NCBI GenBank assembly: GCA_043775315.1
Contig: JAYVSO010000125.1
Coordinates: 78,670-142,669, forward strand
Direction: 5' to 3'
Origin: Verrucomicrobiota bacterium
GTDB taxonomy: Bacteria > Verrucomicrobiota > Verrucomicrobiia > Limisphaerales > CANJSG01
DNA: 64,000 nt
Shown here one piece after another: positions 6,370 to 32,523 of this stretch (its first letter is position 1; every line of letters begins with the position of its first letter). The notes beneath the pieces are model-generated. The model was given only the letters and a program-made list of their open reading frames with translations, was not told where the DNA came from and did no database searches. The position numbers were made by a program, and so were the translations under genes.

Positions 6370-7722
6370 ATGAGCAAAAATTTTCCGACGGCCCAGGCCC
6401 CGTTCATCGTCACCCGCCGGGCCATATCACGCCGGCGCTTCCTCCAGGGCGCGGGCGTCGCGCTCTCGCTGCCTCTGCTCGACGCGATGCTGCCGCCGTT
6501 TGCCCGCGCGGCCACCGGTTCGTCGCCGATTCAGCCGGGCGCGAAGCCGCGCCGGATGTTTGGCATCTGCAACAATCTCGGCCTGCGGCCCGACCTGTTT
6601 TTCCCCAAGGACAGCGGCCCGAACTACACGGCCTCCCCCTACTTGAAGCTCCTGCAGGAGCACCGCCAGGAGTTCACGGTGTTCAGCGGCGTGTCCCACC
6701 CGAACGTCGATGGCGGGCACCCGGCCGACATCGCGTTCCTCACAGCCGCACCGCACCCGGCGAGCAGTTCGTTTCGCAACACGATCTCGCTCGATCAGCA
6801 GATCGCCGAACGCATCGGCACGCTCACGCGCTTCCCCTCGCTCACGCTCGCGGTCAACGGCGGCGGGCGCGGCCTCTCGTGGACGGGAACCGGTGTCGCC
6901 ATCCCGCCCGAGCAGAGCGCCGCCGAGGTGTTCAATCAGCTTTTCCTCCAAGGCACGCCCGAGCAGGTGCAGGCGCAAATCCGCAAGCTCGACACCGGCC
7001 GCAGCATCCTCGACGCGGTGGGTGAGCAGACCAGGGACTTCCAGCGCGGGCTCGGCGCGCGAGACCGGAGCCGGCTCGAACAGTATTTCACCAGCGTGCG
7101 CGATCTGGAGCACCGGTTGCAGGAGTCGAAGGGCTGGGAGAGCAAACCGAAGCCCGTCGTCAACGTCGCGCCGCCCGCGGACCCGACCAACCCCGCGCAA
7201 TACATGGCGAAGATGAAGGCGATGTATGACCTCGTGCGCCTGGCATTCGAGACCGACTCGACGCGCGCCGTCACCCTGATGCTCAACAGCGTCGGCACGC
7301 CGGTCATCTCCGACACGGGCGAGACCCTGACCGACAGTTACCACAACCTCTCGCACCACGGAAAGGCCGACGAGAAACTCTCGCAGCTCAGGATCATCGA
7401 CGAGGGCCACATGAAGCTGCTCGCGGGCCTGTTCCACGACCTCAAGTCCGTCCGCGAAGGCGAAGACACGCTGCTGGATCGCACCATGGTTCTCTTCGGC
7501 TCCAACCTTGGCGACGCCAACGCGCACTCGACGACCAACATGCCCACGATCTTCGCCGGTGGCGGCTTCCGCCACGGCCAGCACCTGTCGCTCGATCCGG
7601 GCGGAATCTATCCACTGCCCAACCTCTTTGTCTCGATGCTCCAACGCATGGGTTTCGAGGATGAGAAGTTCGCTTCCTCGACCGGCACGATGCGCGGCCT
7701 CGAAGCGAAAGGCTCCGCATGA
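6370..7722 (+). CDS. DUF1552 domain protein with Tat signal (partner of DUF1592 protein)
   Basis: N-terminus [24 protein letters not shown] is a twin-arginine signal. ~450 aa. Starts 8 nt after the DUF1592 stop. Conserved [12 protein letters not shown] and [12 protein letters not shown] blocks typical of this family. Confidence 0.8.
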
Positions 7723-8393
7723 GGCCGATGCTTCCTCGGACGAATTCCTCCGGCGCCGCCATGTGTTCCCGCGCCGCAATCTTTCTCGGCGCCGTGGTGT
7801 CCGCCGTCTGCATCGCCGGCACCACATTCACCCCTGCGCCCGGCCCGCTCGCCTCGCCAGCCGCCATCGCGGCGATCCTCGCCGCCGTGCCGCCGCCCGC
7901 CGAGGGCGAGACTGTTGTGGACTTTGAGAAGGCGGAGATCGGGACGCCCTTGACGAAATGGGAAGAAAAAGGCGTGACCTTCGAACTCGCCGGCCCACTC
8001 AAACGCACCCCAGCGGCGAAACCCCGTGTGATGTTTTTTCCGCACCTCGCCACCGGGCACAAGGGCATCCTCAATGCCATGTCCACCGATCAGGCCGTGC
8101 CGCTCAAGATGACGTTGCCGGGTGCCGGCGCGTCTTCGGTCACGCTTGTGCTCTGGGGTTCGACCGGCTGCCCGGCTGTCGTCGAGGCCTTTGATCAGGA
8201 AGGAAAACTCCTCGATAAAAAATCCGTCGAAGCCATCCCCGGTCGCAAGGCTCCCGGCGAGCCCGTTCCTTTCTGCATGCTCACGGTTCAAGGCTCGTCG
8301 ATCGCCTACGTCAATCTCAGCGGCCCGCGCAACGGCGAATTTTTGGCGGCGGACGAAGTGCGGTTCGTGCCTTCAGCGAAGAGCCAGAAATGA
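7719..8393 (+). CDS. Secreted hypothetical protein translationally coupled to DUF1552 gene
   Basis: ATGA overlap with the upstream stop. Hydrophobic N-terminal signal. No recognised domain. Confidence 0.45.
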
Positions 8394-16454: not shown

Positions 16455-18005
16455 ATGGCCCGAATCCAACGCGCGCTGCTCTCCGTTTCCGACAAGTCCG
16501 GCCTGGTCGACTTCGCCAAGGTCCTCGTCGCCGCCGGGGTTGAACTCGTCTCCACCGGCGGCACCGCCAAGGCGCTGCGCGAAGCGGGACTTCCGACGAT
16601 CGAACTGAGCGACTACACGGGCTTCCCGGAGATGTTGGACGGGCGCGTAAAGACGCTGCATCCGAAGATCCACGGCGGGCTTCTCTACCTGCGCGGCAAC
16701 CCCACGCATGAAGCCACCGTGGCGCAGCACTCGATCCGCGCGATCGACTTGGTCATTGTGAACCTCTATCCGTTCGAGCAGACCGTCGCCAAACCGGGAG
16801 TGGAGCTGCACGACGCAATCGAGAATATCGACATCGGCGGACCATCCATGCTCCGCAGCGCGGCGAAAAACCACGAGAGCGTCACGGTGATCGTCGATCC
16901 GGCCGACTACGCCGAAGTATCCCGTCTGGTCCTGGAATCGGGCGAGACGTCGCTGCCCCTGCGCCGAAGATTGGCGGCGAAAGTCTACGCCCGCACCGCG
17001 GCCTACGATTCGGCCATCGCCACCCATCTGGAGAAGGCTTTTGGCATCGCGCAGAACGCCCTTCCATCGACCTTGCGGGTCCATTCACCGATCGCGCAGC
17101 CGTTGCGCTATGGCGAGAATCCCCACCAAAAAGCCGCCCTTTACGGAGGATTCCAGAAGCACTTCACGCAGCTGCACGGTAAGGAGCTTTCGTATAACAA
17201 CATTCTCGATCTGACGGCCGCGGCCCAACTTATCAACGAGTTCGGCGCTGACGGACCGACGTTGGCCATCCTCAAGCACACGAACCCCTGCGGCATTGGC
17301 CAAGGCGCGAACCTGCGCGAAGCGTGGGACCGGGCCTACGCGACGGATCGCCAAGCGCCGTTCGGCGGAATCATCACGGTGAACAAGCCGCTCGACGCCG
17401 CCTGTGCCGAAGCGATCGCGGAGATCTTCAGCGAGGTGATCGTCGCGCCCGAATTCACGCCGGAGGCGCTGGCAGTTCTTCAGAAGAAGAAGAACCTGCG
17501 GCTGCTGAAGATGGCCCGGTTCCCGATGCCCAGCGCTGGAATGGACGTCCGCAGCGTGGGCGTTGAATCGTTCCTTGTTCAGGAACGTGACACCCGGATC
17601 ACGACGGCCTCGGATCTGAAGATCGTCACCAAACGCCAACCAACGGCGACGGAGATCGAAGCGATGCTCTTCGGCTGGCGCGCGGTGAAGCACGTGAAGT
17701 CGAACGCGATCGTCTACGTCGCCGCCGGACAGACCCTCGGCATCGGTGCGGGCCAGATGAGCCGGGTGGATTCGAGCCGGATCGCCGTGTGGAAAGCCGG
17801 CGAAGCCAAGCTGTCGCTGAAGAACAGCGTGGTCTGCAGTGACGCGTTCTTCCCGTTCGCCGACGGACTCATCGCCGCGGCCGAAGCGGGCGCAACGGCA
17901 GCCATCCAGCCAGGAGGTTCAGTTCGTGATGCCGAAGTCATTGCCGCCGCGGACGACCGTGGCATGGCGATGGCCTTCACCGGGCACCGCCATTTTCGTC
18001 ACTGA
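16455..18005 (+). CDS. purH: Bifunctional AICAR formyltransferase / IMP cyclohydrolase PurH
   Basis: [24 protein letters not shown]...STGGTAKAL (MGS-like IMPCH domain) plus a C-terminal AICARFT domain. ~517 aa. Confidence 0.9.
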
Positions 18006-18388
18006 TCGGTCAAGCGGTAGATCGCGAAAACCTGCGCCGCAAACAATGCGGCCAGCGCCAACCAGAAGACGGCCTGTGAAAACTCGGCCGCCTTTTGTTT
18101 TGCCGGCGTCAACGAGACAAGCCAACGCACGGAGCCAGCCACAACCAAATCCCCGCTCCTGAGGATGTGACGAGTGACGGCTTCGCCGTTCACCAACAGG
18201 GTTCCGCTGCTGCAGGCGATCAACGTCGGTCGGCAGAGCTCAAGTTCGACCACGGCGTGCTGATCCCAAACCCCAGGTCGCTCGATCCGGCAGTCGTTGT
18301 CGGCTGATCGCCCGATCCGAAAAGGGAAATGGCGGATCACCTGGTCGGTGTCCGCCAAAGTTGGATCAGCCGGAGTAAGCTGAATCAT
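17999..18388 (-). CDS. FHA domain protein with C-terminal transmembrane anchor
   Basis: [13 protein letters not shown]...VWDQHAVVE...LLVNGEAV pattern typical of FHA. Hydrophobic C-terminal helix. Confidence 0.55.
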
Positions 18389-18391
18389 GGG

Positions 18392-19018
18392 TCAAAAACC
18401 CTGCGGCACATCGATGCGGTCCTGTGGATAGACCTCTAGGTCGAGCTTCGGATTCTGCTTCGCCTTCTTGCAGTTGATGATGTGGCGCTCGCCCCCCGGA
18501 CGGGTCAAAACGACCTTCGTCTTGTCCGCATAGTCGGTGAAGTCACCAGCCGTTTGAATTGCCTGAAGGACCGTAACCCTGCCGATATAAAGCTGACGTC
18601 CCGGCAGTTTAACCTGGCCGCCCACGTAATAGACCTTGTCGGGCCCGGTAACGACGACGTTGAGATTGAGGAAATACTTCGGGACATAGGCCGCCTTAAT
18701 TTCCTTCTCAATGTCACCAAGAGTCTTGCCCGCAACTTTGACGAGTCCGACCAACTCCAAAGAGATTGCGCCGTCCTCTTTGACTTCCGTCTCCACGGTC
18801 TTGAGTCCTGCCGCTTCGACGCTCCCAGCTCCGGAAAACTCCACCTTGATCTTGTCACCTGCCCGGACAGTCACCGTGCCAACGGATTGCGGTTTACCAA
18901 CAGGTGCGTTGGTTCCAGCGGGCTGGGTTGTCTCGCATGCCGTGGTAACCAGCATGACCAGCATCACGCCGACGGCTCCCAACCATTTCAAAATCATTTC
19001 ACGTCCCATACAGATCAT
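18392..19018 (-). CDS. Polysaccharide export protein (Wza/Poly_export + SLBB family), lipoprotein
   Basis: Signal with LVTTAC lipobox. PGDKIKV..GxG and a C-terminal soluble-ligand-binding beta-grasp-like segment. Directly downstream of the Wzc-like kinase. Start uncertain (ATG at 19018, 19009 or 18997). Confidence 0.7.
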   Translation of the reverse strand: MICMGREMILKWLGAVGVMLVMLVTTACETTQPAGTNAPVGKPQSVGTVTVRAGDKIKVEFSGAGSVEAAGLKTVETEVKEDGAISLELVGLVKVAGKTLGDIEKEIKAAYVPKYFLNLNVVVTGPDKVYYVGGQVKLPGRQLYIGRVTVLQAIQTAGDFTDYADKTKVVLTRPGGERHIINCKKAKQNPKLDLEVYPQDRIDVPQGF

Positions 19019-19026
19019 CAGTTAGG

Positions 19027-21201
19027 TCAGAATTTGCTCTTAATCTCAAGCTTCGCGGCGGCTGATTTCGGTCCCTTCTTGGCTGACTTTTTCGATGCGG
19101 CATCGTCGTCATCGTCCTGCTTCGAGTAGTAGTCGTAGTAGTAACCGCTGTAGTAGTAGTAATTTTCGTCAGAGGCCATGTTGATGTTGTTCAACACGAT
19201 TCCAAGCAGGTTGCCACCGACCTTCTGGATCATCTGCTTGGCGCGGATGGTCATGGGCTGCGGGTAGCGCCGGTATTGGATCACCTGCATGACTATATCG
19301 ACCTCGCTCGCCAGGATCGCCGCGTCGCTGATTCCCATGATCGGGGGCGAATCGAAGAAGACGAAATCGTAGCGGCGTTTCAACTCGCCGATCAGCGCCT
19401 TCATCTGCGGGGAACTGAGAATGCCCATCGAGCTCGACGGAAGTTTGCCGGACGGCAGCACATCCAGCGAGGCGAGGCTGGTCCGCTGGATCACCTCCTC
19501 AAGCGTGTTCTGGTTCAGGAGGAAATTCGTCAGACCGAGGGAGTTCGAGACGTTGATGATCTTGTGGATGCTCGGGCGCCGCAGATCGGAGTCGACGACC
19601 AGAACCCGCGCTCCGTTTTGGGCGAAGGTCGTGGCCAGATTGAAGAGCGTGGTGGACTTGCCTTCGCCGGCACCCGCGCTGACCACCGTCATCGTATTGA
19701 AGGTCGGGTCCTTTCGAGAGAACAAGATGTTGGTCCGCAGGACGCGGTATGCCTCGGCGTGGGGGCTTTCGGGTCCTTCGAAAAGGAGGGTCCCAACATT
19801 CTGCGGGATCACCGCGAGCACCGGCGCCTGAAGCGCGCGTTCGACGTCGTCGATCGTCTTCACCGACGTGTCGAGATACTCGATGAAGAACGCAAGCCCG
19901 ACACCTAGGATCAAGCCGACGACAACACCCAACGTGACGTTCAGGGTGATGTTCGGACGAACGGGCTTGAGGGGACGGAGCGCCTTGTCGATCACCTTGA
20001 CCATCGATTCCATCGACAGTTCAGTGTCCAAGTTCTGCTGTTCCTTCCTCAGTTCCAGCGCAGCGATCATTCGGTCAAGCCTGTCCGCTTCCTTCTTTTT
20101 TTCGATGTAGGGAAGGGACAAGGTAGTCTGATCGGTCATTTCCTGCTTCGAGGCTTCAAGCATCTCGCTCACCTTTGCCAGTCGGTTGGAAAAGCTGCGG
20201 ACGTTGATCTCCATGCCGTTGATGATGCCCTTGATCCGATTGTCCAACTCGGTCGTCGTGTTCTCGATGAGAGTTTTCCAGACAATGACTTGGGGATGCT
20301 CGAGACCCAGTTCACCCGTCAGTTTCGTCAGGGCCGCCTTGTAATCGGTCAATGAGTCCGTCAAGCGCTGGAGCGTCGGATCAGGAACAACCGTATACAG
20401 CGACAGTCTAAGATCGGTCGGTGCCAGTTTTACCACCTCGTCCAGTTGCGTTTTGTAGCGGACATATTCGCCTTCGACCAACAGCTTCTGGGAGTTCAAC
20501 TCGCGCAGCGCATTTGCCTGAAGCATCTGGACGCCCTGCATGGATCCCTCGTCGATGAGCGATATCTTGTTTGTGGCCCGGATCATTTTCAGATCCGCCT
20601 GAACAACGGTCAGATTGGTCTCCAGCTGACTCAGTCGCTTCCCCAACTCCTCGACGCCCTTCCTGCTGGTCGATTTGTTGTCCCGTATCCGGGAAAAGCG
20701 GTAGATCTCGGCAACCTTGTCGGCGATCTGGACCGCCTCCTCTATGCTGGTGCTACGAGCTGTAATCTCAATCAAACTTGTGTTTCGAGAAAGGCGCACA
20801 TCCAGACTATTGCTCAAGATTTTTCGCACTTGATCCTTGGTCAAGGTCTGGTTTCCGCCAAATTCCTTCTGCCAAGTCTCCTCCAAATGCAGGTCGTCGA
20901 TCACTTGATCGAGAATTGATTGGGACGTGATGATCTCAAACTGGGTTTGGAGAAAAAATGGGTCGTATCCACCACCCAACGCGGTATCGCCAATTCCCTT
21001 GATGTCGGTTTTGTCCTTGTCGACCTGGATCCGGACCGTGCTCGCGTAGATCTTCTTCATCAACAGCGTCGCAGCGACCGAGGTCATCACCACCAATATG
21101 AAGACGATGAAAATGACCAACTTGCGAATCCGAATGATGCGCCAGTAGTCGAGGAAATGCAGCTTTATCTCCCCACCCTCGGGGCTTTTGGAGGCGTCCA
21201 T
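19027..21201 (-). CDS. Polysaccharide co-polymerase / BY-family tyrosine autokinase (Wzc/GumC-like)
   Basis: Two TM segments flank a large coiled-coil periplasmic domain. Walker A VVSAGAGEGKSTTLFNLA, VVDSDLRRP, and a C-terminal Tyr cluster YYYSGYYYDYYSK. Confidence 0.85.
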   Translation of the reverse strand: MDASKSPEGGEIKLHFLDYWRIIRIRKLVIFIVFILVVMTSVAATLLMKKIYASTVRIQVDKDKTDIKGIGDTALGGGYDPFFLQTQFEIITSQSILDQVIDDLHLEETWQKEFGGNQTLTKDQVRKILSNSLDVRLSRNTSLIEITARSTSIEEAVQIADKVAEIYRFSRIRDNKSTSRKGVEELGKRLSQLETNLTVVQADLKMIRATNKISLIDEGSMQGVQMLQANALRELNSQKLLVEGEYVRYKTQLDEVVKLAPTDLRLSLYTVVPDPTLQRLTDSLTDYKAALTKLTGELGLEHPQVIVWKTLIENTTTELDNRIKGIINGMEINVRSFSNRLAKVSEMLEASKQEMTDQTTLSLPYIEKKKEADRLDRMIAALELRKEQQNLDTELSMESMVKVIDKALRPLKPVRPNITLNVTLGVVVGLILGVGLAFFIEYLDTSVKTIDDVERALQAPVLAVIPQNVGTLLFEGPESPHAEAYRVLRTNILFSRKDPTFNTMTVVSAGAGEGKSTTLFNLATTFAQNGARVLVVDSDLRRPSIHKIINVSNSLGLTNFLLNQNTLEEVIQRTSLASLDVLPSGKLPSSSMGILSSPQMKALIGELKRRYDFVFFDSPPIMGISDAAILASEVDIVMQVIQYRRYPQPMTIRAKQMIQKVGGNLLGIVLNNINMASDENYYYYSGYYYDYYSKQDDDDDAASKKSAKKGPKSAAAKLEIKSKF

Positions 21202-21239
21202 AAAATAAAATGAGGCTGAAAACTAAGTTCTCAGCCTCA
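21202..21239 (-). terminator. Rho-independent terminator downstream of the outer-membrane protein gene
   Basis: 9-bp perfect stem TGAGGCTGA/TCAGCCTCA with a 11-nt loop, followed on the minus strand by UUUUAUUUU. Confidence 0.55.
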
Positions 21240-21264
21240 TCAATGACAAGTTGTATCTCGGGTA

Positions 21265-22497
21265 TCAGTAGGTCGCACGGAGACCAACGAACGCCCGATT
21301 CCGCGTATAGTCGCGGCCAAGGCTATCGGACTCAAGTTTGTCCAAGGAGTAACCAAACTCAGCAGCCCAATTGCGGGTGAAGTCGTATTTCAGGGTGAAA
21401 CCCAATGAGTAATAGGTCTCATTCTTTCCATCCAACGAGCCGCCATCAAATGTAGAAGCCTGCACAAAGCCTAGGGCGTTTCCGGAGAGGAACTCTGTGA
21501 ACTTGTGATTCACGCTGCCGTAAACGGTGGTGGACTGTTGGGCCAAAACAATCTGGTTTACCGCAACTAACCCGGTCACATCGGTCTGAGTCCGTTGGTG
21601 ACGAACGCCCAACTGAACCGATCCAGCGCTGCTGTAAGAATAGGTGGCGGAAACATCGGCATACGGATCAGTCGATTCCTGACCCAGCTTGTAGGAATCA
21701 GTGAACGACAGACCACCACGTGCGGATACCCGCAACTGGCTGCTGAAATCGTGGTCAACTCCCAAGAAAACAGTGTGGGAGCGGCTATTGCGAAGCTTCG
21801 ACGAGAACCCAGGAACGATGTCGTCATTGCTGGTGTAATCAACAATGCGATACTGGTATCCAAGAAGCGCCGTAGTCTGCGGTTGAACAAACCAACGAAG
21901 ACTCCCTGAAATCAGGTGCTCCATCCGATCCAAGAGTGCCGAATAGCTGCCAACACCAGACTTCTTGAAGTCGTAAAAACTATTGGCATAGCCGAGGTCG
22001 TATCCGAACGTCTTCGAAAAGTCCCCACGAAACAGTATGTCGACAACGTTGCGCAGGTTATCGCCTTCGGACCGGAACGGATTCCCTGCACCGTTCAGGA
22101 TTTCAGGATCTTGAGACAGCGAAAAATTCTCGTTGACCTTGAGGTTATAGCGTTCGGAGAAGGAGTGATCCAACCCAAGATTGAACTGGTGGGACAAATC
22201 CCATTCGTTGCTCGGACGGTCCCGGAAGTATTTTCCGGAGAACTCGTAGCTCCCTACGATCAGCGTCTGATCCAAGGGGACATTGAACCCGATTCGCGGG
22301 GTCACCTCAAATCCAATGCTGCTTTCGCTGGTGGCGCTGGGAGCGGTGTTGTAGTTGTCGTCATAGAAGCCGCGAACAGCGGCTGAAACTGTCCAGCCTT
22401 TCGAAGCTTCCGAGGTGGTCAAACCCGGTGCGTAGACGGCATGCAAGCTGACAGCTCCGAGTGCCAGTATCCCAAATGAGGAGGTGATGGTTTTCAT
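21265..22497 (-). CDS. Putative outer-membrane beta-barrel protein (EPS-locus associated)
   Basis: Signal peptide MKTITSSFGILALGAVSLHA. Alternating amphipathic beta-strand pattern rich in Y/S/G. C-terminal aromatic residue (..LRATY). Confidence 0.5.
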   Translation of the reverse strand: MKTITSSFGILALGAVSLHAVYAPGLTTSEASKGWTVSAAVRGFYDDNYNTAPSATSESSIGFEVTPRIGFNVPLDQTLIVGSYEFSGKYFRDRPSNEWDLSHQFNLGLDHSFSERYNLKVNENFSLSQDPEILNGAGNPFRSEGDNLRNVVDILFRGDFSKTFGYDLGYANSFYDFKKSGVGSYSALLDRMEHLISGSLRWFVQPQTTALLGYQYRIVDYTSNDDIVPGFSSKLRNSRSHTVFLGVDHDFSSQLRVSARGGLSFTDSYKLGQESTDPYADVSATYSYSSAGSVQLGVRHQRTQTDVTGLVAVNQIVLAQQSTTVYGSVNHKFTEFLSGNALGFVQASTFDGGSLDGKNETYYSLGFTLKYDFTRNWAAEFGYSLDKLESDSLGRDYTRNRAFVGLRATY

Positions 22498-22617
22498 ATC
22501 TGCAAATTTACCCTTCCATAATCGGCCGAAGACAAAAAGCCTTAAGGCCGCGAATACTTAGGTTGTCCGGCTCCGCAGTGTCAAATCCGAATTTCTAATT
22601 CTGCATCCAATCGTTGA

Positions 22618-24447
22618 TCATCGTTGAGAACTTCCGCGCCACCGCTCCCAATCGCTCAACAATAACTGCCCGGATTCCAGGAACCCGGGCGGCACTTTCC
22701 GAAGCGGAAACCCCGTGGGGACCTCGCCCCGAGAAAAGATATCAGACACAAACCGCCCCCAGCTACGGGTCTGCTTCCACATTCCCGAGTGGAACCTGGC
22801 ATCCAGGGTTCGTGGCGTGAAATAGACGAGCGACACGGTTTTTAGGGAATCGTTTACGAAATAGAAGTCCTCACTGCTGTCGAGCGTCAGCCACATTGAC
22901 TTCCGGCCTCCATACCAGGCGATGGCCCACGGGACATCCGACATCACCATTTCTTCCGGCCTCATCCATTTTCCAATCTGCCCGAACAGCGGGGGGAAAT
23001 ACGGCGGGTAGGCCAATGGAATTGTCCTTGGAGGCATGAGGTGGAGGACCAAGGAAAGGCTAAAAAGAGAAACGGCTCCCGCCTGGATCACATACCGCAA
23101 TTGTCTGAAAGGCAGAATGATCTGATCGAGCAGGACCATGAAGAACCCTGAGCCAAAAACCATGACCATGGGGGCGGCAACGATCAGAAACGCGTCCCCA
23201 TTCACCTCGGGATTCTCAGAGACCCGGAAAGACCTGGACCCGGCGTGGACCAACAGAGCCACCGGGATCGCCATCAGCAGGAACCACCGGAGCCGCCCGA
23301 TTGATGGGTTCATGAAAGGCAGCAACAGGCCTGGCAGGAAGAACGCGATCACCCATGTGCTTCCCATTCCGGGAACATCTTTCTGCACTGCGTCCCGCAG
23401 ATTGGAGGTCAGCTTTCGACCGACTTCTTTTGCGAGCGCTCCGAATTCCACGAACCCCGAGGTCGCCTCGTCGGACCCGCGAGCAAGCTTGAAGTCCAAG
23501 CTGCGCGGCAAAGTTTCCCCCGGAAAAAGACCCGTATCCTCCAACGCCGAATAGGCAGCCGAGCCAAATGGATTTCCAACAATCTGAACGTTCCGAACCG
23601 CCCACGGAGAAAACACCAATAGCATGGTCACCAATGCGACTGCTGGCCCGGCGACCCGCACCGGACGCGCCCAAATCGCCAAAAAAACAACCACCGGCAC
23701 AACAAAAAAGCCGAACGAGTATCGGGTCAGCATTCCAAGGCCAAGCACAAGTCCGGCGAAAAAACAGCTCAGGAGCAGTGATCCTGACGACGATTTCGTT
23801 TCTCCCGAAACCCCACTCTCGATGCGCAAGAGCAACCAAATGAGGGCCAGAAAGAGCAGCATGATGAGACTCGTGTTCATCCCGGAAACCGTGAACCGCC
23901 AAAAAACATCTCCGCCGACGAGAAACGCCGACGAGAGCCACGCGGTTTGAACGTCGAACAGCTTCCTCGCGATAAGGAATACAAACCCAACGGATGCGGC
24001 AAAGAGCAGTTGATTGAAGATCGCCACGATCCACTCCGGCAGGTAGGTGCTGAACGGCTCTTTCCGGGTTTCGCTGATCTCAAACGCTTTTTCCGGAAGC
24101 AGCTTGAACAGGCCCGCAACGATCAAGGGATACAGCGGGGGATGGGAAATATCGGGAACCGCGCCCTTGAGGACCGCCTTTTCGTCGAGGCCCTGCCGTT
24201 TCATCTGTTCCTGCAGCAGAAAGACGTCGAACGGTTTGATGAAATCCGTCGTGAACCCCTTACCCAAGGCGATGTTCCGCGCCAGTTGCGCGTTGTCCAT
24301 CGCATCGGGTGTCTCGAAGTTTCGATAGCACCGGTAATTGAACAGCGCACCGACTCCCACGATCAGCAGAAGCGCGACCGTGATCCGGACCCACTTGGCT
24401 CCGCCGCCTTCTTCAAGTTTGTAGATCAGCTCTTGCAGTCCCGCCAT
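22618..24447 (-). CDS. Polytopic membrane glycosyltransferase, ArnT/PMT-like (GT39/GT83 family) - tentative
   Basis: At least 10 predicted TM helices. N-terminal loop FETPDAMDNAQLARNIA resembles the DE..YA motif loop of the dolichyl/undecaprenyl-phosphate sugar transferases. Start 3 nt downstream of the response regulator stop. Confidence 0.45.
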   Translation of the reverse strand: MAGLQELIYKLEEGGGAKWVRITVALLLIVGVGALFNYRCYRNFETPDAMDNAQLARNIALGKGFTTDFIKPFDVFLLQEQMKRQGLDEKAVLKGAVPDISHPPLYPLIVAGLFKLLPEKAFEISETRKEPFSTYLPEWIVAIFNQLLFAASVGFVFLIARKLFDVQTAWLSSAFLVGGDVFWRFTVSGMNTSLIMLLFLALIWLLLRIESGVSGETKSSSGSLLLSCFFAGLVLGLGMLTRYSFGFFVVPVVVFLAIWARPVRVAGPAVALVTMLLVFSPWAVRNVQIVGNPFGSAAYSALEDTGLFPGETLPRSLDFKLARGSDEATSGFVEFGALAKEVGRKLTSNLRDAVQKDVPGMGSTWVIAFFLPGLLLPFMNPSIGRLRWFLLMAIPVALLVHAGSRSFRVSENPEVNGDAFLIVAAPMVMVFGSGFFMVLLDQIILPFRQLRYVIQAGAVSLFSLSLVLHLMPPRTIPLAYPPYFPPLFGQIGKWMRPEEMVMSDVPWAIAWYGGRKSMWLTLDSSEDFYFVNDSLKTVSLVYFTPRTLDARFHSGMWKQTRSWGRFVSDIFSRGEVPTGFPLRKVPPGFLESGQLLLSDWERWRGSSQR

Positions 24448-24449
24448 GG

Positions 24450-25838
24450 TCAGAATCCTTCCAAGTGATACGTGTGCAGCTTCCGGTGCAGCGTGCGCCG
24501 GCTCATGCCAAGTTTTTGTGCGGCCAGCGTGCGGTTTCCACCGCTCTCCTGCAAGGCACGGATCATCAACTGCCGTTCCGCGTCCTTCACGGAAAGCTCC
24601 GAGCTTGCCGGCGCAGCGGCTCCGGGGCTTGGCGCAGCGACACTCGGCGAAGGCACCGCAGGCGCCCGGACGGACGGCGGCAAGTCACGCAACGTTACCC
24701 GATCCGCCTTCGCAAAGACCACCGCGTGTTCGATCGATGTCCGCAACTCGCGCACGTTGCCGGGCCAACCGTAGCGCATCATCGCTTCGAGTGCGTCGAC
24801 GTTGAAATCGCCGATTTTTTTTCCGTTCTCCTTCGCAAACTCCTTCAAGAACGCGGACGCCAGGAGCGGGACATCCGCCAATCGTTCTCGCAGGGACGGC
24901 ATGTGGATCTCCACAACCTTGAGGCGCCAGAACAGGTCTTCGCGGAAGGTTCCGGCCTTCACCATCTCCTCAAGCTTCCGGTTGGTCGCAGCCACGAGGC
25001 GAACGTCCGATGTCAGAGTCTTGTTCGAGCCGACCCGTTCGAAGGTCCTCTCACCCAGAAAGCGCAGGAGCTTCACCTGGATGATCGCGTCGATCTCGCC
25101 GATCTCGTCGAGAAAGAGCGTTCCACCCTGCGCCTGCTCAACCCGCCCGATGCGCCGTTCATGGGCTCCGGTGAAGGCTCCTTTTTCGTGGCCGAAGAGT
25201 TCGCTTTCAAGCAACGCCGCCGGCAACGCCGCGCAATTGACGGTCACGAGCGGCGCCTTGGCCCGCGGACTGAGTTGGTGAATCGCCTTGGCGATGACCT
25301 CTTTGCCGGTGCCGCTTTCACCCTGGATCAGCACATTGCTCCGGCTCGGGGCCACTTGTTTGATCGTGTCGATGATCTCCAACATCTCCGGCGTCTTGCC
25401 GATGATGTTCTCCAAGCCGAAGCGCGTATCCAACTGCTGGCGAAGCTCCGTGTTCTCCGTTTCCAGCTTCTGCCGGCGAAGCGCGCGCCCGATCCGCATC
25501 TCCAACTCGTCGATCTGCAGACGCCCCTTCGCAATGTAGTCGTCCGCGCCCCTCTTCATCGCTTCGACGGCGATTTCCTCGCTGCCGTAGGCGGTCATGA
25601 GGATGCAGACGGGTGGTTTGGAAAGCGCTTTGGCCCTGGCGATGAGCTTCAAACCATCCTCATTCGGCAGGCGGAAGTCGGTCAGCATCACATCGAAATG
25701 CTCCTGCTCCAAAAGAAGTCCCGCCGCCGCCGCGTCCTCGGCCACGTAGACGTCGTAATGGTCCTCCAACGCCGCGCGGAGGCCTTCCCGCGTGGGTTTT
25801 TCGTCATCAACGATGAGAAGCATGGGCTTCACGTCCAT
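24450..25838 (-). CDS. Sigma-54-dependent two-component response regulator (NtrC family)
   Basis: REC domain (LLIVDDE...D), AAA+ sigma54 activation domain (GESGTGKE, GAFTGA, ESELFGHEKG) and a C-terminal Fis-type HTH. Confidence 0.9.
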   Translation of the reverse strand: MDVKPMLLIVDDEKPTREGLRAALEDHYDVYVAEDAAAAGLLLEQEHFDVMLTDFRLPNEDGLKLIARAKALSKPPVCILMTAYGSEEIAVEAMKRGADDYIAKGRLQIDELEMRIGRALRRQKLETENTELRQQLDTRFGLENIIGKTPEMLEIIDTIKQVAPSRSNVLIQGESGTGKEVIAKAIHQLSPRAKAPLVTVNCAALPAALLESELFGHEKGAFTGAHERRIGRVEQAQGGTLFLDEIGEIDAIIQVKLLRFLGERTFERVGSNKTLTSDVRLVAATNRKLEEMVKAGTFREDLFWRLKVVEIHMPSLRERLADVPLLASAFLKEFAKENGKKIGDFNVDALEAMMRYGWPGNVRELRTSIEHAVVFAKADRVTLRDLPPSVRAPAVPSPSVAAPSPGAAAPASSELSVKDAERQLMIRALQESGGNRTLAAQKLGMSRRTLHRKLHTYHLEGF

Positions 25839-25976: not shown

Positions 25977-27218
25977 TCACGCCGGCCCAGCCAGCAGCTT
26001 CGGCTGCCGTTCGGCCAGGGGGAACCACAGCCGGAAGACCGTCCCCTTGCCCACGTTGCTCTCCAGCTCAATGCGGCCGCCGTGTTCGCGGACGATCCGC
26101 TGGACGATCATCAGGCCAAGCCCCGTCCCCTTGGTCTTCGTCGTGTAGAACGGCTCGAAGATACGGTTGATCTGTTCCTGCGGAATGCCGCCGCCGGTGT
26201 CGGTCACGCTGACCCAGACGCCTTCGCTGGTCTGTCCGGTCGCCAACGTCAGGGCGCCGTCCTTGCTCATGGCCTGCATGGCATTCTTCACCAGGTTCAC
26301 CAGGGCCTGCTTGATCTGAGCGACATCCAACGGCGCAGGGTCCAGCCGTCGCACGCACTTTTCGCGGACGGTGATCCCGCGGTTCTCCATCTCGGGCCGA
26401 AGCAGGTTGAGGGTGTCCAAGACCACCTCGTTGAGCGATGCCGGCTTCAGGTTTGGCTTCGTCGGGCGGATGGCCTGGAGAAACTGCGTGATGATGTAGT
26501 CGAGCCGCGTGATCTCTCCCTTGGCGACGTCAAGGTAGCCGTCGACCTTGTCGAGGATTTCTGCGGCATCGACCGGGGAAGCAGGTTTGCGTTCGCGGAG
26601 CAGAGCCCCGTCCCCCACGCTGCCGTTCAAGGCTTGGCGGAGCTTCTTCGACTCCCGGGTGATGAGTTGCAGATGGATGTGGAGGGCGTTGAGCGGATTG
26701 CCGATCTCGTGGGCCACGCTCGCCGCCAGCAAGGTCAGGGCTTGGATGCGTTCGCTCTCGATCGCCTCGAAGGTCTCCTGCCGGGCTTCAGTGGCGTCGT
26801 GCAGGATAAGCGCGAGGCCCGAACTGCCCTTGGAATCGCCGTCGAGCGGCGCCGCGTAGAGACGGACGAACCGCGGCTCCGGATAGGAGATTTCGAATTC
26901 ATGGCGGACGACCCTTGGCCCTCCCTTGATGTCGAGCTTGCTGAGCCGCTTCCAATCGAGCTCCGGCAGGAACTTGGTGATCGGTTCGCCATCAGCGCCG
27001 TCCGAAGGAAGGTTGAGCAACCGCACGGCGCCCTCGTTGAAGTAGAGGATCCGGCCCGCTTCATCGACCACGAGGACGCCGTCCTCGATGGTGTTGAAGA
27101 GCATTTCGAGGAACGCCCGCTCGCGCGCCAACCGCTCAAACACCGTCTGCATGCCCTGCGGATCCAAGCGGCCGATCCGGCCGAGGACGCGGTCAAGGAA
27201 GCTGGTCTTGGCAGCCAT
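25977..27218 (-). CDS. Sensor histidine kinase (PAS + HisKA + HATPase_c), cytoplasmic
   Basis: PAS-like N-terminus, H-box HEIGNPLNALHIHLQL, N-box LVNLVKNAMQA and G-box GTGLGLMIVQRIV. Confidence 0.85.
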   Translation of the reverse strand: MAAKTSFLDRVLGRIGRLDPQGMQTVFERLARERAFLEMLFNTIEDGVLVVDEAGRILYFNEGAVRLLNLPSDGADGEPITKFLPELDWKRLSKLDIKGGPRVVRHEFEISYPEPRFVRLYAAPLDGDSKGSSGLALILHDATEARQETFEAIESERIQALTLLAASVAHEIGNPLNALHIHLQLITRESKKLRQALNGSVGDGALLRERKPASPVDAAEILDKVDGYLDVAKGEITRLDYIITQFLQAIRPTKPNLKPASLNEVVLDTLNLLRPEMENRGITVREKCVRRLDPAPLDVAQIKQALVNLVKNAMQAMSKDGALTLATGQTSEGVWVSVTDTGGGIPQEQINRIFEPFYTTKTKGTGLGLMIVQRIVREHGGRIELESNVGKGTVFRLWFPLAERQPKLLAGPA

Positions 27219-28267: not shown

Positions 28268-29197
28268 TCACCGATCCCTCTTCAGCAGATACTCCGCGAG
28301 CGCTTCCAGCGCGACGGCCTTGCCCTTAAAGACAGTCAGCGCCTGGAACGCCCGGTCGGTGAGCTGCTGGGCGATCTTCTTCGATTTCTCCAAACCCACG
28401 ATGCTCGGGTAGGTCGCCTTTTGCGCCTGCGTGTCCTTGCCGGCGGTCTTGCCCAGTTGCTCGCTCGTCTGGGTGATGTCGAGGATGTCGTCGATGATCT
28501 GGAAGGCCAGACCCACGCAGAAGCCGAACTCGGTCAATGCCTCCAACTGCTTGGGCGTGCAGTTCGCGCTCATGCCGCCGAGCCGAACGGAGCAGCAGAG
28601 CAGCGCGGAGGTCTTCCGCTCGTGGATGTATTCCAGCTCCTTCTTCGAAAGCGGCTTCCCTTCGCCCTCCAGGTCCGCCACCTGCCCGGCGATGAGCTGG
28701 AGGGAACCCGAGGCTTTGGCGATCTCCATGACCACCGTCCGCATGTCATAACGCTTCCAAGTGCGGCACTGCGCGGCGATCTCGAAGGCCTGCGTCAACA
28801 GCGCGTCGCCCGCCAACACAGCGATGCCTTCGCCGAAGACTTTGTGGTTCGTCAGCTTGCCGCGGCGGTAGTCGTCATTGTCCATCGCCGGCAAGTCGTC
28901 GTGGATCAGCGAGTAGGTGTGGATGCACTCCACCGCGCAGGCCAGCGGCATGGCCTCGGCGATGTCCCCGCCGCAGGCCTCGGCCGCCGCGAGCGTGAGC
29001 GCGGGCCGCATGCGTTTGCCGCCGGCGAAGAGCGAGTAGCGCATCGCCTTGTGGATGGTGGCGGGCTTGGTCTTTTCCGACGGGAGAAAGCGGTCGAGCG
29101 CCCGGTTCACCTGTTCGGTGCGTTCGGCGACGTAGGCTTGGAGATCGAAGCTCCGGTTGGCATTACGGGCTCCGGCTCGGGTGGCGGTGGACGACAT
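28268..29197 (-). CDS. Polyprenyl diphosphate synthase (FPP/GGPP synthase family)
   Basis: FARM LIHDDLPAMDNDDYRRG and SARM GLAFQIIDDILD. Confidence 0.85.
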   Translation of the reverse strand: MSSTATRAGARNANRSFDLQAYVAERTEQVNRALDRFLPSEKTKPATIHKAMRYSLFAGGKRMRPALTLAAAEACGGDIAEAMPLACAVECIHTYSLIHDDLPAMDNDDYRRGKLTNHKVFGEGIAVLAGDALLTQAFEIAAQCRTWKRYDMRTVVMEIAKASGSLQLIAGQVADLEGEGKPLSKKELEYIHERKTSALLCCSVRLGGMSANCTPKQLEALTEFGFCVGLAFQIIDDILDITQTSEQLGKTAGKDTQAQKATYPSIVGLEKSKKIAQQLTDRAFQALTVFKGKAVALEALAEYLLKRDR

Positions 29198-29248
29198 CGC
29201 CGAGGTTTCTAGGGTCCGGCGAATTGCCCGGCAAGACGAGAAGCTAAA

Positions 29249-30970
29249 TCAACCATCGAGACCATCATCTTCACCGTGATGGCGCTCATAGTATCTCTGC
29301 CGCTCTTCCGGGGTCATGCGTTCAATGGCTTGGGTTTCCTTCCACTGACTGGCCTCGGCCAGCATGGTGAACGAGACGTCCATTCCTTTTGAGGAGACTA
29401 GATCGCGAATCTTCTGAAGCGGGAGGCGGAAAAATTCCTTTCGGAAGTTGATCTTGTTGATCCGTCGATCGTCGAACTCGGTATGAAGCAGGAATTCCAG
29501 TGCGGGCGCATCCTGGCTGTAAATCATCGCGTGGACATCGAACCCGAACGGAACTGAGGCGTCGCCAAGCTCCTTGATCCGATCCAGAGGCTCCAGCCGT
29601 CGAGTCATGCCAATCTTGAACACATCTTCGCCAAAAGCACCGAGGTTCGAGATGACGTAGACATGTCCCGCACGGGTTTGTTGGGCCATGGAAAGGGCGC
29701 GTGTTTTAGAAGCTGTATTAGCAAGCTCTTGGCTAAGCTTCGCAATCCGGTCTTCAAGCTTAGCGCGCTGTTCCGCCGTGGCCAACTCCACCTCGGAGCG
29801 GGTCTTTTCAATAGCCTCCCGAATCAATTCCTCCTTCTTTTGAGCTTCCTGGATTGCTCGTTCATATTCGCGTCTGACTTTCTCCTCCTCCCGGATTCGT
29901 TCCTTGATCAGCCGCTGTTCTTCACGCTCTTTCTGCCGGAGCTCATGAACCACGACCGCCCACTTCAATTCTGAAAGCCGTGCGTCCAGATACGCCGGCA
30001 AGACTCGTGCATCTCGAAAGGCTTTGCCGTTCAGGTTCACCAAGCTGAAGGCATCGCGAATTTCTCGTTCAAGGGTCCCGTAGTTGTCGTGCTTCGTTCT
30101 GGAAAGGATGGCGTCCACACGACCGTTGAAGGCGTCGATCACGAAGCGAATGGCGGTTTCGCGGCGATTTGCCTCCGCATACTCACAATCGGCGGCCTGT
30201 GCTTGTTCCACCATCCGTCTCGACTGGTCTCGGGCTGCCGCCAAAGACTGGCCTGCTTCAGTATGCCCAAAGTCTCCGGCCAGATCGTCGAGCAAGCTGC
30301 GGGTAGGGATGATGTAGCGATCCCCATAGCCTTCGACCACGTTCTTGATCGCAGTAACAGCCTGCTGGAGGAGGTGCTTTTCCTTCAGCGCGAGGTAGGC
30401 GTCGCCTCCAATCTCGGCAGCTCTCTTTTCAGCCTGCTCAACAATCCAGCCCGCATCTTTTGTGGCTTGGGACAGCAGTGTTTCGGCGTGGTGGCGTATC
30501 TCCTTTGCTTTTGAGATCGCTTCAGACTGCTCCTTCTGAGCGGCACTTCTGGCCGCTTCCAGTATGGCATCCGCGTCACTCTTCAACCCGACGGCCTGCT
30601 CCAAAGCTTGGGCAAGAATTTTTTGCGCCTCGCCGATGGCATCACTGTTGGCACCATATTTTCTAAGCGGCTCCAGGTCTTTGATGGCCTTGGAAACCAG
30701 TGCGTCGGCCGCTTCCTGAATCTTGCGAGCTTCAGCTTCAAAATGGCCACGAAGGCGCTCCTCTTCTTGCTTCAGGTCAGCCAACTGCTGGTCAATCAGC
30801 GTCCTAGCTTCATTCTCGATGCGGGCTGTCTCAGATTCGAAGTGTGCGGTCAAATCAGCCACCTGCTTAAGGGATGCGGCCAATTTTTTTTCGAGCCGCT
30901 TGACCTCCATCAAGGCTACAAGAAAGAGGCCAGCAAACACTGCTGCCACGATTGCGAAGACGATGATCAT
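29249..30970 (-). CDS. DUF4041 + T5orf172 (GIY-YIG-like) domain protein with N-terminal TM helix and long coiled coil
   Basis: N-terminal MIIVFAIVAAVFAGLFLVALM TM segment, ~350 aa of E/K/A-rich coiled coil, and a C-terminal GHVYVISN...FKIGMTRRLEPLDRIKEL...ALEFLLHTEF block matching T5orf172/MUG113. Lower GC than the flanks. Confidence 0.75.
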   Translation of the reverse strand: MIIVFAIVAAVFAGLFLVALMEVKRLEKKLAASLKQVADLTAHFESETARIENEARTLIDQQLADLKQEEERLRGHFEAEARKIQEAADALVSKAIKDLEPLRKYGANSDAIGEAQKILAQALEQAVGLKSDADAILEAARSAAQKEQSEAISKAKEIRHHAETLLSQATKDAGWIVEQAEKRAAEIGGDAYLALKEKHLLQQAVTAIKNVVEGYGDRYIIPTRSLLDDLAGDFGHTEAGQSLAAARDQSRRMVEQAQAADCEYAEANRRETAIRFVIDAFNGRVDAILSRTKHDNYGTLEREIRDAFSLVNLNGKAFRDARVLPAYLDARLSELKWAVVVHELRQKEREEQRLIKERIREEEKVRREYERAIQEAQKKEELIREAIEKTRSEVELATAEQRAKLEDRIAKLSQELANTASKTRALSMAQQTRAGHVYVISNLGAFGEDVFKIGMTRRLEPLDRIKELGDASVPFGFDVHAMIYSQDAPALEFLLHTEFDDRRINKINFRKEFFRLPLQKIRDLVSSKGMDVSFTMLAEASQWKETQAIERMTPEERQRYYERHHGEDDGLDG

Positions 30971-30980
30971 AGAGCGTTGG

Positions 30981-32051
30981 CTATTGAGCGGGCTTTAACG
31001 GCTGAGGAGAGAGCTGCGTCAGTCTGGAGCTAAGTTCACCTCGCAGCTGCGAAACTCGGGCGACCAGATCATCAATGGTCCAGCTGCCGATAGGGGTGCC
31101 CGATAGTTCCTGCGGTGAGAGAGGGGTGATCCTCTGAAATGCCAAGGCTTTCCGGCTGCCCTTGAAATCACCACGGTGCTGGAACGCCTCGATGGCATCG
31201 GAAGGATCAAGGTGCTCGAAGTTGAGGCGTAGCAGTTCCTGGCGGGGGAACGCGACCGAGAGAACAGCCTGTTCTTCAGTGTTTCCAGTAGCCAAATCCA
31301 GCGCCTCCACCGACGCAGTGATCAGCACGACTTTCAGGGGTAACAGCGCAAATACTTCCCTAGCCACTCGCAGGAGGCACCCGCAAACGTGATCTTGGTA
31401 GATTTCGTGGAAACCCGCTCGCGGCATCGCCTTGATGGAGAGTTTCCCGCCAGCCGAGAGGGATTTGACCTCAGACGGGATGACATGGGTGCCATTCACC
31501 CGCAGTCGACACTCGACGAGTTGTGATGAGTGAACCGTGAAGTGCGCCGATGATCCGAGGCTCGATATTTCGGACAAAGGACTGAGTTCAGCCAACGCTT
31601 CGGCATAGGCCGCGTGGTCTCCGGAAAGGATTCGCACTGCCAAGCGGCGCATCTCCTCCATCTCGGAGACGGCTACAACATGAGCCTTTAGGGCTTCCTG
31701 AAAGCTGCTTTCGTCCAATCGAATTGCGGCTTCGCACGAAACTTCCGATTTTGGGTTCAGCGCCTGAAGCAGGGCGGCTTTCTCGTGCAGCCGTAAGTTG
31801 GATGGGGCAGGCGGCGGAAGGGCAGCGGCAAACTTCCTCCAATTCACTTCCTGCCCCTGCTCCTTGTGGACCGACAGGAGCACCTCCAACAGGTTTTCAT
31901 GGGTTTCAACTTCAAGGCGTGCTTGTTCGATCACGGAGAGCCTGACCTGCTCCTTTGTCCGTCGCTCCAACTCCTTCATCCGTCTCTGCGCCTCACGTTG
32001 CTGCCGTTTCTCGGCGGCTTCTATTGCTCGGAGTGTAGCTTTCCATCCCAT
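30981..32051 (-). CDS. Hypothetical protein with N-terminal coiled coil (partner of DUF4041 protein)
   Basis: Starts 10 nt upstream of the DUF4041 gene on the same strand. EAAEKRQQREAQRRMKELERRTKEQ coiled coil. No recognised catalytic motif. Low GC. Confidence 0.45.
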   Translation of the reverse strand: MGWKATLRAIEAAEKRQQREAQRRMKELERRTKEQVRLSVIEQARLEVETHENLLEVLLSVHKEQGQEVNWRKFAAALPPPAPSNLRLHEKAALLQALNPKSEVSCEAAIRLDESSFQEALKAHVVAVSEMEEMRRLAVRILSGDHAAYAEALAELSPLSEISSLGSSAHFTVHSSQLVECRLRVNGTHVIPSEVKSLSAGGKLSIKAMPRAGFHEIYQDHVCGCLLRVAREVFALLPLKVVLITASVEALDLATGNTEEQAVLSVAFPRQELLRLNFEHLDPSDAIEAFQHRGDFKGSRKALAFQRITPLSPQELSGTPIGSWTIDDLVARVSQLRGELSSRLTQLSPQPLKPAQ

Positions 32052-32156
32052 TGGCGTGCCGAAAACTGGCTTGGGCTTTTGGGAGGAGCAACGCGAAAAC
32101 TTTGCTCTTTCGACGAGGCGATTGCTTGCCGATCAGACGCAGCTCAAGGGAAGAGT

Positions 32157-32240
32157 TGGTGCGGACGAGAGGACTTGAACCTCCACTCCTTACGGAACCA
32201 GATCCTAAGTCTGGCGCGTCTGCCATTTCGCCACGTCCGC
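32157..32240 (-). tRNA. tRNA-Leu (anticodon UAG), CCA encoded
   Basis: Reverse complement gives GCGGACGTGGCGAAATGGCAGACGCGCCAGACTTAGGATCTGGTTCCGTAAGGAGTGGAGGTTCAAGTCCTCTCGTCCGCACCA. It has a 7-bp acceptor stem, anticodon loop CTTAGGA, a long variable arm (class II) and T-loop GGTTCAAGTCC. Confidence 0.8.
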
Positions 32241-32523
32241 ACCCGGCTTGGGATTGATACAAGGACAAGTTCGGCAGAACACGCAGAAAATTGTCAGGCG
32301 ACGGACCACCTTCGATCCTGGTCAAAACGATTCCGCCGGTAGGGCGAAGGCTCCCGCCGAGCCGCCGCTGCGCTTTCTGAAAACAAATGGGCAGCGGCGG
32401 CACCGCCTGACGGTTGATGTAGACGTCCGGCTTCCCACGAGCAGCCGACTTGTCACGAGATGGTCACACGGCGGCTAGCCGGGAGGCTTCGCTCTACCGC
32501 TGCGCTCTTCAGCGACCACGGAG

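Follow-up and report, generated by a model that had tools for sequence, protein, structure and literature searches.

A two-gene islet located between a tRNA-Leu(UAG) gene and a polyprenyl synthase gene of a Verrucomicrobiota bacterium was found to encode a homologue of the anti-phage nuclease SNIPE (originally PD-lambda-1), preceded by an uncharacterised partner protein. The islet was analysed within a 64,000-nt stretch of contig JAYVSO010000125.1 (positions 78,670 to 142,669; hereafter the window, whose numbering is used unless another locus is named). Its two co-directional open reading frames (ORFs), referred to as geneA and geneB, reside on the (-) strand with a spacing of 10 nt, and ORF calling agreed with the arrangement and coordinates given in a preliminary description of the locus. 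Both genes of that description were real, but it had numbered them in plus-strand order, whereas geneA is tRNA-proximal and transcribed first and geneB is transcribed second. The effector family is known, and what appears, from sequence comparison, to be new is a conserved SNIPE partner, together with a single unnamed module that links SNIPE, Shango, and Ter. The islet is probably a two-component SNIPE anti-phage cassette, with geneA as its adaptor or sensor subunit.

The geneB product (29249-30970, (-) strand; 573 aa) could be assigned to the SNIPE/PD-lambda-1 family of membrane-anchored nucleases via PADLOC, phrog, and Pfam. It matched the PADLOC PD-Lambda-1 profiles PDLC03976 (E=3.4e-108, residues 246-558) and PDLC03977 (E=1.7e-106, residues 131-556), as well as phrog_1847 (E=1e-114). 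A predicted N-terminal transmembrane (TM) anchor, IIVFAIVAAVFAGLFLVALMEV, spans residues 2-23 (30902-30967, (-) strand; Kyte-Doolittle 19-residue mean of 3.09) and is followed by DUF4041 (PF13250, now labelled SNIPE; residues 276-331; 29978-30145, (-) strand; Pfam E=4.6e-13, with 49.3 bits vs. a cut-off of 27), which is the best-conserved geneB block in the partnered clade. Further downstream lies a GIY-YIG-type nuclease domain (T5orf172/MUG113; residues 435-526; 29393-29668, (-) strand), matched in Pfam by MUG113 (E=5.7e-19) and T5orf172 (E=2.9e-14), and all geneB domains exceeded their gathering scores. The membrane anchor, DUF4041, and T5orf172 domain of the preliminary description were in this way recovered, and its suggestion of an anti-phage nuclease is supported by the homology to SNIPE. 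Moreover, a TM-like N-terminus (mean of 2.1-3.4) was seen in 46 of the 47 partnered geneB homologues, the exception probably being a mis-called start. With a SNIPE profile match, DUF4041, and a predicted N-terminal membrane anchor, geneB is, as far as its sequence tells, a clear SNIPE/PD-lambda-1 homologue, i.e., a new member of a known family.

Within the nuclease domain, residues Y438, K452, G454, R457, R458, E467, N505, and E512 were invariant across 31 homologues, with E512 as a candidate counterpart of E414, the catalytic glutamate of Escherichia coli SNIPE. The AlphaFold2 (AF2) model of geneB, of low confidence with a predicted local distance difference test (pLDDT) score of 64, begins with two helices (2-103 and 109-214) and continues through the helical DUF4041 region and a long linker helix (residues 323-431) into a beta/alpha nuclease core (residues 435-527). 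This helical content is roughly that of the long coiled coil initially described for geneB, but in the model it is split around DUF4041.

PD-lambda-1 was discovered by functional selection in E. coli (PMC9519451), and was later characterised and renamed SNIPE, a membrane-anchored nuclease cutting phage DNA during injection (PMC13190303). Its DUF4041 binds DNA as well as the phage tape measure protein, its variable N-terminal region serves as an adapter, and removal of its TM helix makes it toxic, the membrane-bound form being described as auto-inhibited (PMC13190303). The geneB protein appears to be laid out in the same order as this published protein (PMC9519451, PMC13190303), i.e., TM anchor, variable helical N-terminal region, DUF4041, linker helix, and GIY-YIG/T5orf172, with the difference that its region between TM helix and DUF4041 is modelled as a long coiled coil of ~190 residues. 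Since defence by the E. coli protein is direct and non-abortive and allows infected cells to survive (PMC13190303), the abortive infection originally considered for the islet is unlikely. Finally, SNIPE has been treated as a single gene, with no partner named in the main text (PMC13190303), whereas the mostly verrucomicrobial subclade studied here has a coupled and conserved upstream geneA.

geneA and its pairing with SNIPE genes

The geneA ORF (30981-32051, (-) strand) encodes a 356-aa uncharacterised SNIPE partner, for which no significant match was obtained in Pfam (none at E<=1), NCBIfam, or PADLOC, the sole match being the equally uncharacterised phrog_38135. Searches of the PDB yielded no relative by sequence or profile, and no fold match for its core. 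More than 739 homologues of geneA were collected, none with a Pfam domain, and a profile search of 1.84 billion sequence representatives delineated a family of 2040 clusters at E<=1e-3, or 814 at E<=1e-30. The AF2 model (pLDDT 76) consists of an N-terminal helix (residues 3-59), a helical region (106-164), an alpha/beta core (166-295), and a C-terminal helix (326-347). Of these, the long N-terminal helix (31875-32045, (-) strand) is highly conserved (RRQQREAQKR..ELER..KEQAKLSAIEQARLEVE; alignment A1 and AF2 DSSP), and the core (31167-31556, (-) strand) carries the motif MPxxRFHEIYQDYVCGCxLRVAREVFALLP and is common to DUF4236 proteins and Shango SngA fusions (alignments A1 and A2; tblastn of plasmids). 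The partner had first been described as having an N-terminal coiled coil similar to that of geneB. A long helix is indeed present there, but geneA is more than a similar coiled coil, namely a distinct module with an alpha/beta core that is common to SngA fusions and to DUF4236 proteins of tellurite-resistance (ter) clusters.

Invariant polar residues are few across the wide geneA family (i.e., E42, H62, R228, and D285), and an enzymatic role for geneA therefore seems unlikely. As a separate matter, a PD-(D/E)XK nuclease reading of the core was considered and rejected, its motif not being conserved in the wider family and the core having no PDB fold match. A phage origin of geneA was likewise rejected, as no match to it as query was retrieved from the INPHARED phage genomes or IMG/VR.

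To define the genomic company of geneA, it was used as query against one genome per species, resulting in 62 loci that were mostly from Verrucomicrobiota, with a few labelled Lentisphaerae/Victivallales, Acidobacteriota, or Thermoanaerobaculales. A SNIPE gene was located immediately downstream, on the same strand, in ~47 of these 62 loci, the others being Shango fusions, contig ends, or fragments. The neighbourhood survey proposed along with the preliminary description was thus positive for a conserved partner in this SNIPE subclade. When ORF boundaries were compared in 47 pairs (38 genome loci and 9 metagenome loci), the geneA stop and geneB start were found to overlap by 4 nt (ATGA) in 38 pairs, instead of being separated by the 10-nt spacer present in the window sequence (30971-30980, (-) strand). 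Both genes are under purifying selection, with ratios of nonsynonymous to synonymous substitution rates (dN/dS) of 0.15 for geneA and 0.09 for geneB relative to the closest intact relative (L158). Their pairwise identities were correlated as well (r=0.69 over 861 pairs), as would be expected for linked genes anyway.

A Fibrella (Bacteroidota) plasmid was found to carry the pair in reversed order, i.e., a SNIPE gene whose product is 52% identical to geneB, followed 42 nt downstream by a full-length geneA homologue (31% identity), which provides apparently independent support for the partnership from outside the phylum. In the reverse survey, with geneB as query, 80 metagenome loci were retrieved, and geneA was located upstream in only nine, all belonging to the closest SNIPE subclade. 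No common alternative upstream partner emerged for the SNIPEs lacking geneA in this survey, their upstream genes being heterogeneous. Since geneA was found in the nine closest-subclade loci and was absent near ~60 other SNIPEs, it is, judging from these gene neighbourhoods, a subclade-specific addition to SNIPE and not a general feature.

Neither PADLOC-DB v2 nor Pfam contained the partner, and no mention of it was encountered in the literature searched. Current defence-finding tools treat PD-lambda-1 as a single-gene system and overlook the partner, and at least one public annotation truncates the start of the latter. Indeed, the NCBI geneA protein (P0001) starts at M25 and counts 332 aa, compared with the 356 aa of Logan gene calls. 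Because residues 1-24 (31980-32051) are conserved in homologues and the other caller gives 356 aa, the deposited NCBI start is probably too far downstream. In one of the paired loci (L020), geneA is followed by a truncated SNIPE gene (346 aa) and preceded by a copy of the C-terminal SNIPE half in inverted orientation (L020:4993-5775 and 7104-8144), which suggests inversion or rearrangement within that cassette.

The geneA module in Shango and ter loci

Shango, as reportedly described by Millman et al. in 2022, consists of the TerB/TerB_C protein SngA, the BrxC/D-like ATPase SngB, and the DEAD-box helicase SngC, encoded in one operon. Where geneA loci lacked SNIPE, the geneA module (residues 1 to ~320) made up the N-terminal part of an SngA-matching protein, directly ahead of its TerB and TerB_C domains, and the genes after this fusion encoded SngB (E=1e-162) and SngC (E=4e-227). 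The fused form was present in two loci (L047 and L053), and more geneA-TerB fusions, as well as one split version, were found among the sequence representatives. In contrast, no TerB, SngB, or SngC lies beside geneA in the window, and geneA itself has no TerB match (Pfam E<=1). It is instead free-standing with a C-terminal helix of its own, and its partner is a nuclease and not an ATPase-helicase pair.

More distant geneA homologues, annotated as "DUF4236 domain-containing protein", were detected via tblastn in 2399 plasmid records. These proteins are homologous over the coiled coil and the alpha/beta core and share a conserved MG[WF] start, with 29-37% identity over 74-82% of geneA (Nostoc, Bacillus, and Geobacillus) or, for the Klebsiella ter cluster, 33% identity over geneA residues 191-348. 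DUF4236 was recognised in three such homologues (L064, L065, and L066) at E=1e-19 to 1e-22. The 55-residue DUF4236 region is missing from geneA, in which DUF4236 (PF14020) gave no Pfam match at E<=1 and only the "MGW" start is retained (alignment A2).

The Klebsiella homologue (L066) sits inside a ter cluster, between an HpcH-type aldolase gene and a CopG-family gene, the latter being annotated TerW in other records. On a Hymenobacter plasmid, a DUF4236-headed gene follows ter-associated kinase, phosphatase, and DUF475 genes, and on a Bacillus tropicus plasmid a geneA homologue is found among AbiH, a P-loop NTPase, and a TIR protein. The Geobacillus plasmid pBt40 (L065:4770-6985) carries a DUF4236-headed geneA homologue overlapping by 1 nt the start of a downstream nuclease gene, the product of which has N-terminal TM helices plus SNase and Excalibur domains, i.e., a membrane-anchored partner non-homologous to SNIPE. 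Finally, on a Hymenobacter monticola plasmid (L152:3114-4990), a 147-aa TerB gene precedes a TM-anchored DUF4041/SNIPE gene by 12 nt and the pair adjoins Qat system genes, an arrangement seen only once.

Membrane surveillance has been proposed as the task of TerB systems, Shango among them (10.1101/2022.05.11.491447; 10.1101/2025.09.30.679545). Because of this proposal, and because SNIPE acts at the membrane during injection, the context shared by SNIPE, Shango, and Ter may, by analogy, be that of envelope-proximal defence early in infection. The link of these three through one module was unexpected, and the geneA module could help explain what TerB-type "membrane surveillance" systems sense.

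Mobility of the cassette and candidate roles for geneA

The same two-gene cassette was found on a metagenomic contig (L158, from Logan SRR23479362) at L158:720-3572, with 84% nucleotide identity (blastn). This homology was limited to exactly window positions 29248-32098, amidst unrelated flanks and without a tRNA, and since it stops exactly there, the cassette can be defined as these 2.85 kb. Its upstream edge is thereby formed by the 47-nt leader 5' of geneA (32052-32098, (-) strand), at which the L158 homology begins. In a close relative (L059; ~87% nucleotide identity), the same tRNA-Leu and polyprenyl synthase flanks enclose a version of the cassette with a 2273-bp internal deletion (L059:5806-6560), in which geneA residues 1-67 are joined out of frame to geneB residues 464-573. 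A short sequence, CAAGGAGC, is common to geneA and geneB at the positions joined in L059. Furthermore, two proteins (P0366 and P0244) are independent in-frame geneA-geneB chimeras formed by deletion.

In composition as well, the islet stands apart. Its GC content was 0.559 (29198-32156) vs. a mean of 0.623 for the whole window, and only 6.4% of equally sized segments were as low, all of these lying in two regions, i.e., the islet and an exopolysaccharide export locus at ~17-23 kb. At third codon positions (GC3), geneA (0.636) and geneB (0.613) differed even more sharply from the five flanking genes (0.79-0.91), so that the compositional anomaly, noted already in the preliminary description, is real. 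The deviating GC3, the unrelated flanks in L158, and the deletion remnant in L059 argue for horizontal acquisition, and the islet would accordingly be the small acquired module that had been suspected, i.e., a mobile and dispensable cassette.

The tRNA, in turn, had been put forward as an integration site, with a direct repeat of its 3' end to be sought near 29.2 kb. However, no second copy of the tRNA 3' 25-mer occurs in the window, even with up to 3 mismatches allowed, and no repeat of >12 nt links the two islet boundaries. The islet contains only its two ORFs and, as described before, no integrase. Moreover, a tRNA lies directly upstream in just 2 of the 60 geneA loci scanned, i.e., L059, which represents the same locus, and L041, which argues against the tRNA as a general integration site for the pair. 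The atypical composition and variable presence of a tRNA-integrated island were thus observed, without its integrase and tRNA 3' repeat.

With regard to function, the N-terminal TM helix would anchor geneB in the inner membrane, with its coiled coil, DUF4041, and GIY-YIG nuclease facing the cytoplasm, and the nuclease would, by homology, cut entering phage DNA as a direct defence and not by abortive infection. geneA would be co-produced with geneB from a two-gene operon (the ORFs overlapping in most relatives) and act as a non-enzymatic adaptor or sensor that helps to place or license the nuclease at the phage entry site. Because the same module heads the Shango TerB protein and occurs in ter clusters, it might serve as an exchangeable front end for envelope-proximal defence systems. 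We infer this adaptor or sensor role, as well as physical contact of the two proteins and an anti-phage effect in this bacterium, from the homologies and gene neighbourhoods described above. A wider and more tentative possibility is that the module constitutes an unnamed sensor/adaptor domain that couples phage-entry recognition to several effectors, i.e., the nuclease in the case of SNIPE, TerB with its ATPase and helicase in that of Shango, the Ter stress system, and perhaps also a TM-anchored SNase. If so, two-gene SNIPE would be a distinct subtype, with specificity set by geneA and not by SNIPE's own N-terminus.

A serious rival, although we regard it as rather unlikely, is that geneA is an antitoxin-like inhibitor that silences SNIPE until phage infection removes or displaces it, which would make the pair a toxin-antitoxin-like or abortive module. 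Like many type II toxin-antitoxin operons, the cassette has two translationally coupled genes, with a non-enzymatic protein encoded upstream and a potentially toxic nuclease downstream. E. coli SNIPE is indeed toxic without its TM helix and described as auto-inhibited when membrane-bound (PMC13190303), and the repeated internal deletions that destroyed both genes together (L059, P0366, and P0244) would suit a costly toxic module. Nevertheless, geneA is, with 356 aa, large for an antitoxin and recurs, fused to the N-terminus of SngA, in a different defence system, and the SNIPE nuclease family works alone in other bacteria, by defence that is direct and not abortive (PMC13190303). The adaptor is favoured over the inhibitor mainly because the module also occurs on SngA and in ter clusters, contexts that offer no GIY-YIG nuclease as a target for inhibition, and because single-gene SNIPEs are tolerated without geneA.

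Less likely readings deny the coupling or the defence itself. There is a slim chance that geneA is an independent defence or stress gene merely travelling with SNIPE, in the absence of any direct functional coupling. Members of its family are found in ter clusters, Bacillus plasmids, and Nostoc with no SNIPE alongside, most SNIPEs occur without geneA, and correlated divergence would arise for any linked gene pair. Such a hitchhiker would, however, hardly be expected to keep a 4-nt ORF overlap in 38 of 47 loci or to recur beside SNIPE across phyla in both gene orders, and in loci lacking SNIPE the module does not stand alone but is covalently joined to a different defence protein. Even less probable is that the cassette is a selfish element, of which the GIY-YIG/T5orf172 protein would be a homing-type endonuclease spreading the islet to tRNA-proximal sites. 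GIY-YIG domains do occur in homing endonucleases, the window and L158 show differing contexts with sharp boundaries, and a tRNA is adjacent both here and in L041. That adjacency is nevertheless confined to 2 of 60 loci, target-site repeats are lacking, and geneA as query gave no copies in IMG/VR or INPHARED phage genomes. Moreover, the full-length architecture of TM anchor, DUF4041, and nuclease matches that of a characterised defence protein (E=1e-108), and a membrane anchor is not a known feature of homing endonucleases.

Several observations nonetheless weigh against a two-component cassette with geneA as adaptor or sensor. E. coli SNIPE functions as a single gene, and geneA was absent within 4 kb in ~60 of the 80 metagenomic SNIPE loci, these ~60 being from gut and marine samples, meaning that SNIPE does not inherently depend on the partner. 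A gene that lies upstream and is translationally coupled would suit an inhibitor or antitoxin equally well. Furthermore, the defence-island context envisaged at the outset proved weak, with PADLOC matches at E<=1e-15 in only ~4 of 112 neighbouring ORFs (19 paired loci), and the cassette is flanked by housekeeping genes in the window. At the protein level, the geneB model reached a pLDDT of just 64, and E512 is no more than a putative counterpart of the catalytic E414.

SNIPE represents a recently described mode of telling self from non-self, by cutting DNA at the place and time of injection, and its targeting and licensing are only partly understood. The adaptor or sensor proposed here, as a conserved partner, would offer a concrete handle on both.

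Neighbouring features in the window

The tRNA-Leu gene (anticodon TAG; 32157-32240, (-) strand) was called by ARAGORN and matched the Rfam tRNA family with 59 bits, its 3' end pointing towards the islet. It also marks a synteny break vs. the close relative L059, whose alignment begins at 32244. An ABC transporter gene lies upstream of the tRNA, and the polyprenyl synthase gene (28268-29197) lies downstream of geneB. Promoter and terminator scans gave no signal exceeding shuffled expectation. Between the ABC transporter stop codon and the tRNA-Leu gene, a 31-nt inverted repeat (32337-32367 / 32469-32499) was observed, with arms that are 87% complementary and 101 nt apart and without an Rfam match.

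The second low-GC stretch of the window (17400-24450, with a minimum of 0.525) holds an exopolysaccharide export set on the (-) strand and is not a defence locus. This set comprises genes for a Poly_export/SLBB protein (18392-19018), a Wzz protein with a tyrosine-kinase-like ATPase (19027-21201), a beta-barrel porin (21265-22497), and a PMT_2 glycosyltransferase (22618-24447). A sigma-54-dependent response regulator (24450-25838; receiver, AAA+, and Fis helix-turn-helix domains) matched PADLOC RtcR_PspF2 at E=5e-112, probably through no more than its generic enhancer-binding-protein core, and is adjoined by a histidine kinase gene (25977-27218).

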